A stretch of DNA of 64,000 nt from a virus. Both the position numbers and the translations under genes were made by a program. Location of the stretch: IMG/VR virus record IMGVR_UViG_3300020472_000018, positions 11,930-75,929 of that record, one strand, 5' to 3'. The notes below the pieces were generated by a model, which had not been told where the DNA came from, searched no databases, and saw only the letters and a list, made by a program, of their open reading frames with translations. Numbering within the stretch: position 1 is the first letter of the stretch; every line of letters starts with the position of its first letter. This document shows, in pieces, positions 10,527-55,427 of this stretch.

Positions 10527-11989
10527 TGGCAATAGATTTTCCTACAAGTCCTAGTCTTAATGCCACTCATAGTCATAATGGTTTAATTTGGAAGTGGGAT
10601 GGTACATCTTGGATTTTACAAACAACTATACAATCTGGTGTAACTCAAATACCACCTATGGTTAATGTTGCAGACTATGGAGCACTTCCAAGTGCTAGTG
10701 GTGCAGCAAATAGAACTGGTATTGAAAATGCTATTAACTCATTAGCATCTACGGGAGGAATGGTTTATATTCCTACAGGAACTTATGATATAACAGGTAC
10801 TATATTATTAGATAGTGGAACTTTGGGTGATGGTGGTGGTATAAGTATTATTGGTGCAACTGAGAATTATAGAATTAGTGCTGCTGATGCTGAAGGCACT
10901 TTGCTAAGATCTACTGATGCTGGTAGTGATATAATCAAAGTAAATAACGTAAGAAATGTAACTTTTGCCAACTTAGCATTTGATCATAAAGACGGCACAC
11001 CTAGAAATGGTGGAAATGCTATTCATTGTTATTCTAATGTAAATACTCAACAAATTAGAATGGATAGGATTTATATCCGAAATCAATTTGGTGGTATTAA
11101 AATGGATGGACATTCCATTTCAACATTCAGAGATATAGAGATTAGAGATATTGTAAATGAAGGTGGTTCTTTTGGAATGTTATTCAGTGCTTCTGCTGGT
11201 GGATCGGAAAGAGTTGATCAGATAAGATGTGAGAATGTTTTAATTGATGGTGTGATTAGTGGAAGTCCACATCCAACTGCAAATGGATTATGGGTTAAGG
11301 ATTTTGTAAATTCAATATGGTTCCTTAATTGTGTATCTAATCGTTGTAATAAAGGATTATTAATGGATGCAACTGTTCCTAGTGGAGATACAGGTAATCC
11401 TGGTTCATTCTTTAGAATAAATGATTGTGATTTTGATACTAATAATTCATATGGTATTGAGATTGCTGGTGGTAGTTTTATATGGATTAATAACCCATAT
11501 ATAAGTAGTAATCTTATTAATGGTTTGAGAACTAGTTCGACTTTTAGTGGTGTTTTAAGATTGAATGCTGCAGATTGTAGAGGTAATGGTCAGCACGGAA
11601 TTTATATTCGCTCTGATCAACATAAAAAAATTCATATAAGAGACTCTCAGTGTTCTTATAATTCTGCATCTAATACCAATGCTTATGATGGACTTCATAT
11701 ATACGATGATGGTGCTGCATCTGTAAATCAATCTGATATAATGATTGATGGTGGACAGTATGGTGGAGATATGATGGGAGGCATTAATGATGGTGGTGGT
11801 GGTCCTGGAACAACACAGAGGTATGGAATTAATTTTACTGCTAATATTAAATACAAAAGAATCATTATTAATAATGTAGATTGTTCTGCAAATTTAACAG
11901 GATCACATAGATTTACAGTTGGTAATGGAACTGATAATATGATTCATAATGTTATTCCATTCCACGGATCACACTCAGGTGCTCATTAA
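10526..11989 (+). CDS. Tailspike-like right-handed beta-helix (pectate-lyase-like) protein
   Basis: N-terminal DFP module followed by [23 protein letters not shown] and Asn-ladder repeats; ATG overlaps the upstream stop (TAATG). Confidence 0.8.
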
Positions 11990-53472: not shown

Positions 53473-53739
53473 ATGGCACAACCAAAGCACGACTTAGATC
53501 ACGAAGTTTATCTTGATCCTAAAGATGGCAAAGAGCATATCAATCATGGTATGCTAGAGTATTCTAAAGAGGATTTAGAAAACGTACACGCACAATATGA
53601 TGAGTATCATAAGGATGAGATAGTTGATCCTAATGATGCTAAGATCAATGACTATCATACAAGGCACGAGGATAAGCACCTTGAGGTCTATTGTGATAAT
53701 CACCCTGATTCTATGGAATGTAGAGTCTATGATGACTAA
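53473..53739 (+). CDS. cp12: CP12-domain protein (Calvin cycle inhibitor)
   Basis: C-terminal LEVYCDNHPDSMECRVYDD; His/Asp-rich N-terminus lacks the N-terminal Cys pair. Confidence 0.85.
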   Translation: MAQPKHDLDHEVYLDPKDGKEHINHGMLEYSKEDLENVHAQYDEYHKDEIVDPNDAKINDYHTRHEDKHLEVYCDNHPDSMECRVYDD

Positions 53740-53745
53740 TTGTAT

Positions 53746-53801
53746 GACAGATCAATAAGTGGCACACACCCCCTATACAGGGGGTTTTTTAATGCTATTA
53801 T
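53746..53801 (+). promoter_or_regulatory. Palindrome/-10 early-type promoter element with nested terminator
   Basis: GACAGAT-N4-AAGTGGCAC-N30-TATTAT; the spacer holds ACCCCCT..AGGGGGTTTTTT. Confidence 0.7.
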
Positions 53802-53807
53802 ATAAAT

Positions 53808-53964
53808 GTGGAAAACAAACGAGGTTCTTAACTACTCTGACAAATGCAAGGATCTATGGTTGTCTCTGTTCAGCAGAGAAATTACGTCCTGTAAGTCTAA
53901 TAGAAGCAGAGACATCACGTTAAGGTAAAATACAAAAACAGTCCTCCGTTTTGTTTTCCTTCAC
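53808..53964 (+). ncRNA. Putative structured RNA (about 157 nt)
   Basis: Nested stems GGAAAACAAA/TTTGTTTTCC, CTTAAC/GTTAAG and TGTCTCTGTT/AGCAGAGACA; begins at the predicted TSS. Confidence 0.6.
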
Positions 53965-53981
53965 CTATATTTTTATTACAA

Positions 53982-54404
53982 ATGGGAACTCGCTCACGCA
54001 TAGGACTACAACTTGAGGGACAGATCATTTCAGTATATCATCACTGGGATGGTTATCCACAGTGGTTAGGTGTTACACTTGAAAAGAAGTTTAACACTAG
54101 AGAGTCAGTTGAAGAACTAATTGACGGTGGAGATATGTCTTCTTGCGATTCTGATACTGATTGGGATCTTAAAGAATGTGAACCACATGCTCAATACTAT
54201 AGTTTAAGAGGTGAGGACTGCCCACCAAAGATCTCTGAGTCAATTACAGAGTATCTTGACCAAACAGAGAATACAGATGGTGAGTATGCTTACCTATTTG
54301 ATAATGGTTCTTGGACTTGTTATGAGATAGGGCAGTATGGTGATGGAGTAAAAGGCAGAATACTTGATATTCCTGCCGATTACCCAGTTAGAGAGACAGT
54401 TTAA
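53982..54404 (+). CDS. Conserved early phage protein (HWDGYP motif)
   Basis: MGTRSRIG..SVYHHWDGYP..G..L; EYAYLF. Confidence 0.7.
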   Translation: MGTRSRIGLQLEGQIISVYHHWDGYPQWLGVTLEKKFNTRESVEELIDGGDMSSCDSDTDWDLKECEPHAQYYSLRGEDCPPKISESITEYLDQTENTDGEYAYLFDNGSWTCYEIGQYGDGVKGRILDIPADYPVRETV

Positions 54405-54450
54405 GAACTGTAACAAGGGTGGTTGATCTTCCACCCAAATCAATTATAAT
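54395..54450 (+). promoter_or_regulatory. Palindrome/-10 early-type promoter element
   Basis: GACAGTT-N4-AACTGTAAC-N30-TATAAT; spacer hairpin GGGTGG/CCACCC. Confidence 0.75.
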
Positions 54451-54469
54451 AAGATCATCAACACAATCA

Positions 54470-54722
54470 CTTGGCATCCATACATCCATTTTTGGTTAGG
54501 AGGTGTAAGTCCAATCCACATGAGAGATATGTGGTTCCTATGCCCCGATTAAGTTTGGGGGTTCAGGTGTAAGCGATTCCCATAGGGTAAATTTGGGCAG
54601 CATGGGTGAAACCCAGATCATTGCCCCACTCTCTCATTTTTTATTGTGGTATGACTTAGTACCTGTAATTAGACTCAGTAAATGGGTTAGGATCAGGTGA
54701 AGCACCTCTTGAGCATACCACA
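54470..54722 (+). ncRNA. Putative array of three structured RNA domains
   Basis: Closing stems TTGG/CCAA, TGAGAG/CTCTCA and TGTGGTATG/CATACCACA; each domain contains AGGTG(T)AAG; locally GC-rich; no ORF in the track. Confidence 0.55.
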
Positions 54723-54753
54723 CCCCTTTGTAAACCGACACTATTTTTTTAAA

Positions 54754-54867
54754 ATGTCACCTAATTTCGCAGAATTCCTTTTGGACACTACCAACAATGG
54801 AAATGAGATCCTAGCGGTTCTTGAGGATATTGTAGAGGTAGTAGAGACAGGAGGAACCGATCTATAA
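54754..54867 (+). CDS. Small acidic protein (37 aa)
   Basis: MSPNFAEFLLDTTNNGNEILAVLEDIVEVVETGGTDL. Confidence 0.55.
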   Translation: MSPNFAEFLLDTTNNGNEILAVLEDIVEVVETGGTDL

Positions 54868-54911
54868 ACTGGCACAAATATGCCCCTATCTAACGGTAGG
54901 GGCATTATAAT
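54856..54911 (+). promoter_or_regulatory. Palindrome/-10 early-type promoter element
   Basis: AACTGGCAC-N30-TATAAT; spacer hairpin ATGCCCCTA/TAGGGGCAT. Confidence 0.75.
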
Positions 54912-54938
54912 ATATTCATACACCCAAAGGAGATTCAA

Positions 54939-55427
54939 ATGCCTACAGTTTTAACAAAACAAGAGAGAGATAGGGTAATTGGTAGTCTTCAAGAGAATGT
55001 CCTTCACTGGACACAGCAACTATGTGATTCACTTGGTGAAAACTACAAGCGTTATCACAGAAGAATGATTGAATCAAATGCTGCAAGATTCAATGGTGAT
55101 GGTCAGAGACAAGATCTATCACGCTACGCACAAGAGCAATTAGATGCCTTGAATGATGGTACTTTCAAGGGTATGAAGTTTAGTATTACAACTGGTAAGA
55201 AGTACCATAAGATCATTTCAAATGACTGGGATGATCGTAGAAATGAGTGGAATAGTGGTGGAGTCCATGCATTTGTAAACAAGCATACAGGTGAAGTTTA
55301 CAAACCTGCAAGTTGGAAGTCTCCAGCAAAGCACGTTAGATATGATCTAAGAGTTATTAGAGATCGTGAGTATGTACTTGATCCTGATAACTGTGGATGG
55401 TCGGGTGGTTATCTTTATATGAGATAA
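54939..55427 (+). CDS. Conserved early phage protein
   Basis: AAGGAG SD; KKYHKI..VHAFV..TGEVYKPASWKSPAKHVRYDL. Confidence 0.7.
   Translation: MPTVLTKQERDRVIGSLQENVLHWTQQLCDSLGENYKRYHRRMIESNAARFNGDGQRQDLSRYAQEQLDALNDGTFKGMKFSITTGKKYHKIISNDWDDRRNEWNSGGVHAFVNKHTGEVYKPASWKSPAKHVRYDLRVIRDREYVLDPDNCGWSGGYLYMR

Follow-up and report, generated by a model that had tools for sequence, protein, structure and literature searches.

Comparison with homologous loci shows that an intergenic array in a cyanophage genome is headed by an early-type promoter, is by implication co-transcribed with a small ORF, and consists of three autonomous predicted folds (domains A, B and C) that bear the marks of selection at the RNA level. 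Each of these modules emerges from the comparison as an RNA family of its own, so far uncatalogued, of T4-like cyanophages, with stems that covary and with loop or junction bases that are fixed. The initial annotation of this DNA had proposed different, independently folding and co-transcribed RNA domains under RNA-level selection, and the present analysis supports that proposal. It had also proposed that the domains present one and the same motif repeatedly; this part does not hold, since the identity between the domains is specific to the window and at chance level, and each domain has its own invariant surface.

T4-like cyanophages are among the most abundant viruses of the ocean and shape the populations of Prochlorococcus and Synechococcus. 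We describe here several RNA families that have no entry in the databases; their covariation is of textbook quality, their cores are invariant, and marine metagenomes contain hundreds of their copies. For structured RNAs they behave unusually: as a rule they are present once per genome, do not depend on neighboring genes, and are freely permuted and lodged in one another's loops. Knowing their partners and roles could reveal a new layer of phage take-over, be it RNA decoys, new ribozymes or leader devices, and would also give compact, portable RNA folds. Their function is directly testable, because the cultured phage P-SSM2 has the same A-B-C array, at 56.6-56.9 kb of AY939844.

The locus and its early promoter

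The window, i.e. the whole stretch of 64,000 nucleotides that was analysed (positions 11,930 to 75,929 of the record IMGVR_UViG_3300020472_000018), is part of a 75.9-kb IMG/VR viral contig that is ~30% complete. Sequence comparison identifies it as a fragment of a T4-like cyanomyovirus close to Prochlorococcus phage P-SSM2. The 1.3 kb round the array have ~76% identity to the Prochlorococcus phages P-SSM2 and P-SSM5 (Kyanoviridae, Salacisavirus) and also match several single-cell 'marine virus' records, and the neighboring genes are the usual early and accessory set of cyanophages (bilin reductase, CP12, DUF7717, DUF6267). The features discussed below are collected in Table 1.

Positions 54457-54753 are non-coding, with a stem-loop and a sigma-70-type promoter upstream and a 37-aa ORF downstream. 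The initial annotation had described about 300 nt free of ORFs, which is confirmed: there is no ATG ORF of at least 30 aa in 54405-54753, and the three short TTG/GTG frames in this interval can be ruled out as coding because the homologues show indels of 1, 2 and 4 nt together with paired substitutions.

The upstream element supports the earlier view that the array sits behind an early-type promoter. Its -35 box TTGATC (54423-28) lies inside the stem-loop, and the -10 box TATAAT (54445-50) follows 16 nt later. The promoter score of 10/12 is the highest in the region, the transcript is predicted to start at ~54457, and the element is kept in P-SSM2 and P-SSM5. Elsewhere, roughly every second copy of domain B has an element of this type directly before it. 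The interval between the array and the 37-aa ORF (54640-54753) contains no terminator-like site, which implies that the two are co-transcribed; members of this ORF family lie downstream of domain B or C in 32 loci.

With its stem-loop, early promoter and small early gene, the element at 54417-54450 is of the type of the PeSLs (promoter-early stem-loops), the mobile regulatory cassettes of T4-type phages (Arbiol et al. 2010, PMC2839356). The likeness, which includes the flanking of small early genes and the modular shuffling, applies to the upstream element only and not to the RNAs. PeSLs are DNA or promoter units, whereas the units shuffled here are folded RNAs downstream of the promoter.

Only two leaders within the window bear such folded RNAs. 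Another copy of the early element, at 54867-54938 (AACTGGCACA, with the stem-loop ATGCCCCTA...TAGGGGCAT and TATAAT), runs directly to a ribosome-binding site and the DUF7717 gene without a folded RNA, and folded leaders are thus optional in this genome.

The intergenic stretch as a whole is 84% identical to that of P-SSM2 and better kept than the flanking genes. Domains B and C reach 94.8% and 98.9% identity to P-SSM2, respectively, to be compared with the ~76% of the 1.3-kb region including flanking genes. The folding energy of the whole 356-nt region is weak on both strands (z = -1.2 and -0.5). The structural case relies therefore on the comparison of homologues, and thermodynamics alone would have missed the structure.

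Table 1. Positions of the features in the window.
Feature	Position	Strand	Description
53808 RNA	53808..53964	+	neighboring early RNA; scaffold CUCUG...AGAAGCAGAG, nested core 53848-53900 ending CCUGUAAGUC
140-aa ORF	53982-54404		upstream of the array; homologue of PSSM2_070, phrog_1987
PeSL-like early element	54417..54450	+	stem GGGTGG 54417-22 / CCACCC 54431-36, -35 TTGATC, -10 TATAAT
Domain A	54471..54514	+	clamp: UUGG 54471-74 / CCAA 54511-14, CA 54475-76, UGUAAGU 54504-10
Domain A payload	54477-54503	+	UCCAUACAUCCAUUUUUGGUUAGGAGG
Domain B	54520..54637	+	three-way junction; alignment and RNAalifold, pair counts with controls
B P1	54520-27 / 54630-37	+	closing helix
B P1b	54531-33 / 54627-29	+	GUG/CAC
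B P2	54537-42 / 54581-86	+	
B P2a hairpin	54543-60	+	
B invariant strand	54561-80	+	GUUCAGGUGUAAGCGAUUCC
B J2/3	54587-94	+	GUAAAUUU
B P3	54595-600 / 54621-26	+	
B P3b	54604-14	+	GGGU-GAA-ACCC
Domain C	54645..54722	+	hairpin; covariation in 26 distinct copies
C P1	54646-53 / 54714-21	+	
C bulged A	54654	+	
C single pair	C54655-G54713	+	covarying N-N' pair
C invariant internal loop	54656-61 opposite 54698-712	+	UUAGUA opposite UGAAGCACCUCUUGA
C distal stem	54662-65 / 54694-97	+	CCUG / CAGG
C exchangeable tip	54666-93	+	at least 6 kinds of tip
37-aa ORF	54754..54867	+	homologue of PSSM2_071; first coding sequence of the transcript

The three domains and the 53808 RNA

The strongest covariation counts were obtained with domain B. 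In a MAFFT alignment of 32 distinct short copies it has 35 pairs, 14 of which are changed on both sides, and 99% of the cells are paired. None of 500 shuffles reaches the real counts, and slid controls likewise stay far below them. All the stems that had been named for this domain, CCTATG/CATAGG, CCCC/GGGG, GGGCAG/TTGCCC and GGGT-GAA-ACCC, are real and covary; those that had been missed are the closing helix P1 and the GUG/CAC pairing P1b. P2 shows up to three pair types per position among the 32 copies, and its 3' strand exists in at least 13 versions when all copies are taken together. The stem CCUAUG/CAUAGG of the window reads CCAUAG/CUAUGG in P-SSM2.

The unpaired bases of B are fixed, namely GAUA, GU-N-Y-AGGUGYAAGCGAUUCC, UAAAUUUGG and GGUGAAACC, and some 60 columns of the alignment are invariant. 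The core AGGUGYAAGCGAUUCC is nearly invariant across the homologues, and the core sequences of the B and C modules include AGGUGUAAGCG and UGAAGCACC. Since G-U pairs are common, A-C pairs nearly absent, and the indels of 1, 2 or 4 nt not multiples of three, B is best read as a non-coding RNA of the + strand. The many G-U pairs had been taken at the outset as a sign of selection on RNA, which agrees with this asymmetry.

Domain B is widespread. Its 19-nt strand TTCAGGTGTAAGCGATTCC occurs in at least 120 IMG/VR contigs and at least 120 marine metagenome contigs, and at least 271 copies of the domain were collected from at least 238 distinct neighborhoods. The covariance model of B, called R1, finds the domain in the window with 138.8 bits (E = 1e-39). 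Exactly one copy is present in the window and in the whole record, and the same holds for the 252-kb genome of P-SSM2, for a genome of 202 kb with a completeness rating of 100%, and for each of three other large contigs. P-SSM2 and P-SSM5 are the only cultured phages with B, and at least two further, uncultured cyanomyovirus lineages carry it.

Domain C is a hairpin with an MFE z-score of -3.0. Among its 26 distinct copies, the 8-bp closing helix P1 has three or four pair types at several positions, and the single pair next to the bulged A is C-G in 14 copies, G-C in nine and U-G in two. The distal stem occurs as CCUG/CAGG, CCUU/AAGG, CUCA/UGAG and CCUA/UAGG. Both stems originally proposed for this domain, TGTGGTATG/CATACCACA and ACCTG/CAGGT, covary in these copies.

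The case of domain A is different in kind. The earlier proposal that it is a fold stands only in part: taken by itself, it folds no better than shuffles (z = -0.03), but it is one of a family of recurring clamps whose outer stem covaries. The clamp has the form NNGGCR-payload-YUGUAAGUCCN'N', and the outer dinucleotides occur in eight complementary combinations. At least 15 kinds of payload, about 20-130 nt long, are found in it elsewhere, including the core of the 53808 RNA, and one payload is seen with differing outer clamp pairs. In P-SSM2 the clamp is kept at the same place with a different payload. The payload core of domain A is also nested in domain B loops of other phages.

The 53808 RNA is the second folded RNA in this part of the window, with a terminator (53768-85) and a promoter (53774-801) upstream. 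Copies of its core are found in 25-50 loci, in many cases with GGCA...UGUAAGUCC as flanks, and in many other phages the core is the payload of the same clamp as that of domain A. This explains the shared string TGTAAGTC(C/T)AAT. TGTAAGTCTAAT and TGTAAGTCCAAT are the two copies of a repeat. A hairpin in its core covaries, UCUCUG-UUCAG-CAGAGA in some loci being UCUCAA-UUCAG-UUGAGA in others (e.g. L058, L095, L077), which supports the 53808 RNA as a real fold. A possible resemblance of its scaffold, UAGAAGCAG...CAUCA...UUAAGG, to the GTPase-centre loop of 23S rRNA was at chance level against E. coli rRNA.

It is important to specify what remains of the 9-10-nt motif that was thought to link the domains. 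The strings AGGTGTAAGT, AGGTGTAAGC, AGGTGAAGC and CTGTAAGT are all present, but at chance level in the window, and the homologues have kept UG(U)AAG alone. AGGUGYAAGCGAUUCC is invariant in the homologues of B. In C, the AGG is part of the stem rather than of a motif because the distal stem covaries (CAGG, AAGG, UGAG, UAGG), and in domain A it lies within the exchangeable payload. The conserved kernel common to all domains is thus UG(U)AAG only. The longer identities, AGGTGTAAG between A and B and GG(T/A)TCAGGTG between B and C, do exist, and equally long chance repeats occur within the same 1 kb. Neither GGTGTAAG nor CAGGTGWAAGC is enriched in the window. The pentamers UGUAA and UGAAA are, we presume, possibly T-loop-like.

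Exchange of modules and their genomic contexts

The modules are re-ordered between phages and lodged in each other's terminal loops. The aptamer-like core of B tolerates inserts of up to ~200 nt. Its P2a loop often contains long inserts that turn out to be further modules, among them C, the payload of A, the 53808 core and a 53808-type scaffold, joined as CCC-GAA...AGUA-GGG. We assume that these junctions possibly form a sarcin-ricin-type loop. Domain C, in turn, encloses the 53808 core in certain phages; elsewhere it is itself enclosed by B or by the scaffold. In complete genomes the modules are single-copy and within ~4 kb of each other, and they are grouped within a short part of the early region, a few kb long.

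The neighboring genes vary widely. The ORFs next to a set of 131 B copies fall into at least 41 clusters upstream and at least 32 downstream, the latter mostly small proteins. The commonest neighbor, the PSSM2_070 family (phrog_1987, no Pfam family), was considered as a partner protein and rejected, as no more than 31 of 99 B copies have it within 1.5 kb. Another module lies downstream of B in half of the distinct contexts (57/114), and in a few B contexts the next promoter element follows without an ORF. B copies that stand alone, the next promoter or terminator being reached without an intervening ORF, as in L056 and in L053/L098/L110, make up ~5% of the B contexts.

In a higher-GC cyanomyovirus (L057:4950-5130, IMGVR_UViG_3300006332_000075), the closing helix of B is wholly different, GAUCUGAA/UUCAGAUC. 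B is there the payload of a clamp, AUGGCA...UAUAAGUCCAU, with an 8-bp outer stem, a stop codon directly upstream and an intrinsic terminator downstream. Judged from its sequence, this layout is that of a stand-alone small RNA.

Several further elements were noted next to the modules. A ~130-nt module downstream of C (L003:2803-2932, MH319750; similar in L005, L111 and L048) has a tRNA-like look, with a 6-7-bp acceptor-like stem and an adjacent 5-bp arm with the 7-nt loop UUCAAUU, while a long inserted arm replaces the D and anticodon arms; it gave no ARAGORN call and no Rfam match. Recurrent modules that are likewise uncatalogued follow B in other phages (e.g. L014, L006, L063 and L024), namely CUGCUGCAACCCCCUUUGGUAGUUUCAGGGUUGGAGGCGAUAGGAAACUACC with covarying variants, GAGGAGAUGGAUGUGCCUCGUGGGUCGCC... 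and GGGCAAACGCAAGGCAGGGGUGAGCAAC..., none of which occurs in the window. In ~20 loci (e.g. L014, L090, L010), GGGGGGACGCAUAAAGUGUCC-UUAUAG stands directly before B in place of the sigma-70-type early element; it could be another type of promoter or another RNA module.

Known RNAs and possible functions

The expectation that no known Rfam family accounts for the array was borne out, even at E<=10. With Rfam 15, the whole window gave no match at the gathering score, and at E<=10 there were no relevant matches over 53700-55000 or over 54455-54760; 20 related loci (141 kb in total) gave none either. The test took in manA, wcaG, PhotoRC, the glutamine riboswitch, abiF, xrRNA and 5S rRNA. ARAGORN found no tRNA or tmRNA gene in the window and 21 related loci. 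In the full-text literature outside a catalogue of 10,006 candidate viral RNAs (PMC10690425), we found no description of the module cores or of such cyanophage RNAs.

The closest parallels by setting are manA (RF01745) and wcaG (RF01761), structured RNAs that are conserved and come almost exclusively from T4-like cyanophages and marine metagenomes (Weinberg et al. 2010, PMC2864571). They share with the modules the 5'-leader position and the absence of a proven function, but there is no sequence or structure match at E<=10. The two motifs, moreover, keep to certain classes of genes. The modules, by contrast, do not depend on a gene, can be nested and mostly occur once per genome. The T4 RNAs rnaC and rnaD (species 1 and 2) are small stable RNAs of 139 and 119 nt from a co-transcribed RNA cluster, and B is also 119 nt long; the 3' part of rnaC is tRNA-like, which B is not. 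Homology to them was rejected, as the best matches of R1 in the T4 region, with filters off, had ~11 bits and were located elsewhere.

Mimicry of host RNA was also considered. In place of host rRNA, that of E. coli was compared: the 53808 RNA and domains A, B and C matched its 16S, 23S and 5S rRNA no better than shuffles (z <= 2.9), and the specific idea of the 5S-sized domain B as a 5S rRNA mimic was likewise at chance level. A search of 185,579 prokaryote species genomes for the exact 19-nt core of B gave five matches; the taxa are all unrelated, and chance would give about as many. A host-RNA mimic is thus unlikely for B, since the exact core has no host counterpart beyond chance.

As to what the modules do, we lean towards autonomous early RNA products that would bind a protein, with a cis-acting leader nearly as likely. 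The specific account that we favor, tentatively and with somewhat less than even confidence, is that the modules are self-contained RNA cargo, the fixed loop bases of which would be the recognition surface for a conserved partner. The sigma-70-type early promoter would drive one transcript with the clamp of domain A, the junction B, the hairpin C and then the 37-aa ORF. A module would need only early transcription and folding and would not be a switch for a particular gene. Once folded, B would present AGGUGYAAGCGAUUCC together with UAAAUUUGG and GGUGAAACC, C would present UUAGUA/UGAAGCACCUCUUGA, and the clamp CR/UGUAAGU. A conserved factor of the host or the phage, probably a protein, would recognize such a surface, and the RNA would bind or titrate that factor, or be processed by it, during host take-over. 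Riding in a leader or in the loop of another module would then be a mere means of expression. We read the modules in this way because they are usually single-copy, indifferent to the neighboring gene, tolerant of position (array, loop, 3' of an ORF) and absent from most early cassettes.

Type III toxin-antitoxin decoys (pseudo-ToxI, abiF RF03085) offer a precedent, being folded phage RNAs that need only be expressed to neutralize a host protein, and such a role would suit gene-independent, early-expressed modules. The array differs from them in having no tandem 36-nt repeats, no abiF/ToxI match in Rfam, no host counterpart of the B core and no toxin gene nearby. Tandem direct repeats of the ToxI type are absent, as the three domains differ and share only chance-level repeats of 9-12 nt. 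The initial annotation had suggested a sponge or decoy, possibly for anti-defence; against a sponge for one ligand speaks that the motif which it would display is not conserved.

In the cis-acting alternative, which is possible if somewhat doubtful, the modules would act on the transcript that carries them or on RNA polymerase. Possible roles are a 5' shield against RNase E/RNase J, processing or punctuation, translation enhancement, or put-like antitermination. The geometry of the B copies argues for this. P1 starts 0-10 nt past the -10 box in ~43 of 87 distinct copies, so that the 5' end would be buried in a helix. The modules are always oriented as the downstream ORF, and a start codon follows B within 60 nt in 35 of 114 distinct contexts, with a spacer that is mostly 20-30 nt and AU-rich in the copies read through. 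Terminators after the array are rare, with none between array and ORF in the window, and most B copies resemble mRNA leaders. Different modules can also head one gene family in different phages, an example being the PSSM2_070 family, with B before it in L030 and L051 but the 53808 RNA in the present genome.

As for antitermination, the put RNAs of HK022 and the xrRNAs are self-contained folded elements that are active wherever they are placed, and put RNAs sit just after early promoters, which is also the position of the ~43 B copies above; xrRNAs occur in tandem non-identical copies. One copy per genome would suit a processive antiterminator that heads a long early unit. The likeness to the array is, however, in logic only: the put RNA is a two-hairpin fold, which B does not resemble, the folds of the modules differ from those of both systems, and there is no xrRNA match in Rfam. 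More generally, most early cassettes in the window have no folded leader, so that there is no general requirement for one. For a shield, a plain 5' hairpin would suffice, which leaves about 45 invariant bases unexplained. Stand-alone and 3'-located copies exist, and nested copies are distant from the 5' end.

Going beyond the cargo account, marine cyanomyoviruses, those like P-SSM2 and others, might have in their early regions a combinatorial set of at least a dozen autonomous RNA 'genes', with B, C and the clamp payloads among them, each of them a high-affinity ligand of a different host or phage protein, e.g. a nuclease, a toxin or an RNA-binding regulator, and might trade and nest the modules like accessory genes. 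We consider this unlikely in so strong a form. If true, it would amount to an RNA-based arsenal for take-over or anti-defence without a described counterpart.

Another option considered was that at least one module is a new class of self-cleaving ribozyme that cuts the early transcript. Small folds with a junction or internal loop, invariant unpaired bases and freely varying, extendable stems would fit, as would the phage-restricted, clustered occurrence in variable gene contexts. Small ribozymes were reportedly discovered in part through such clustering, with the same pattern, by Weinberg et al. in 2015. We also take GGUGCAAG to be reminiscent of the twister-sister loop. On the other hand, the models of hammerhead, twister, twister-sister, pistol, hatchet and HDV-like ribozymes gave no match at E<=10, and a copy right at the start of a transcript has little to cut, so that we regard a ribozyme as improbable.

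It is much the same, with still longer odds, for B, or B plus C, as a riboswitch aptamer that senses a metabolite on behalf of the downstream gene. B has the appearance of an aptamer, as a compact three-way junction in a 5' leader with covarying stems and fixed junction bases. However, the downstream ORFs fall into the at least 32 unrelated clusters mentioned above, with no common pathway, and there is no conserved expression platform: no terminator follows the array, and in the direct B-to-ORF contexts that were read the spacers are unstructured, with no sequestered RBS. With neither a common gene class nor an expression platform, the riboswitch is disfavored. In addition, P1 is long and stable (8 + 3 bp), and the core of B accepts its large inserts and occurs without an ORF.

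Finally, the conservation could in principle stem from a DNA-level element, such as a site at which mobile cassettes recombine or a DNA site bound by a protein, in line with the exchange of cassettes at fixed joints (the clamp flanks and the P2a loop), the breaking of assemblies at B and the PeSL-like stem-loop and promoter upstream (PMC2839356), but this is hardly credible because pairing is kept through compensatory changes with several pair types per position and through G-U pairs on one strand only, with A-C nearly absent, which is sensible for a + strand RNA only, and the clamp flanks are merely 6 and 9 nt. The breaks themselves are frequent: 50 of the 271 collected B copies (~18%) lie within 80 nt of a contig end, in the metagenome loci L186-L265. 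Assemblies apparently break at B because it is a conserved island whose flanks differ between co-occurring phage strains.
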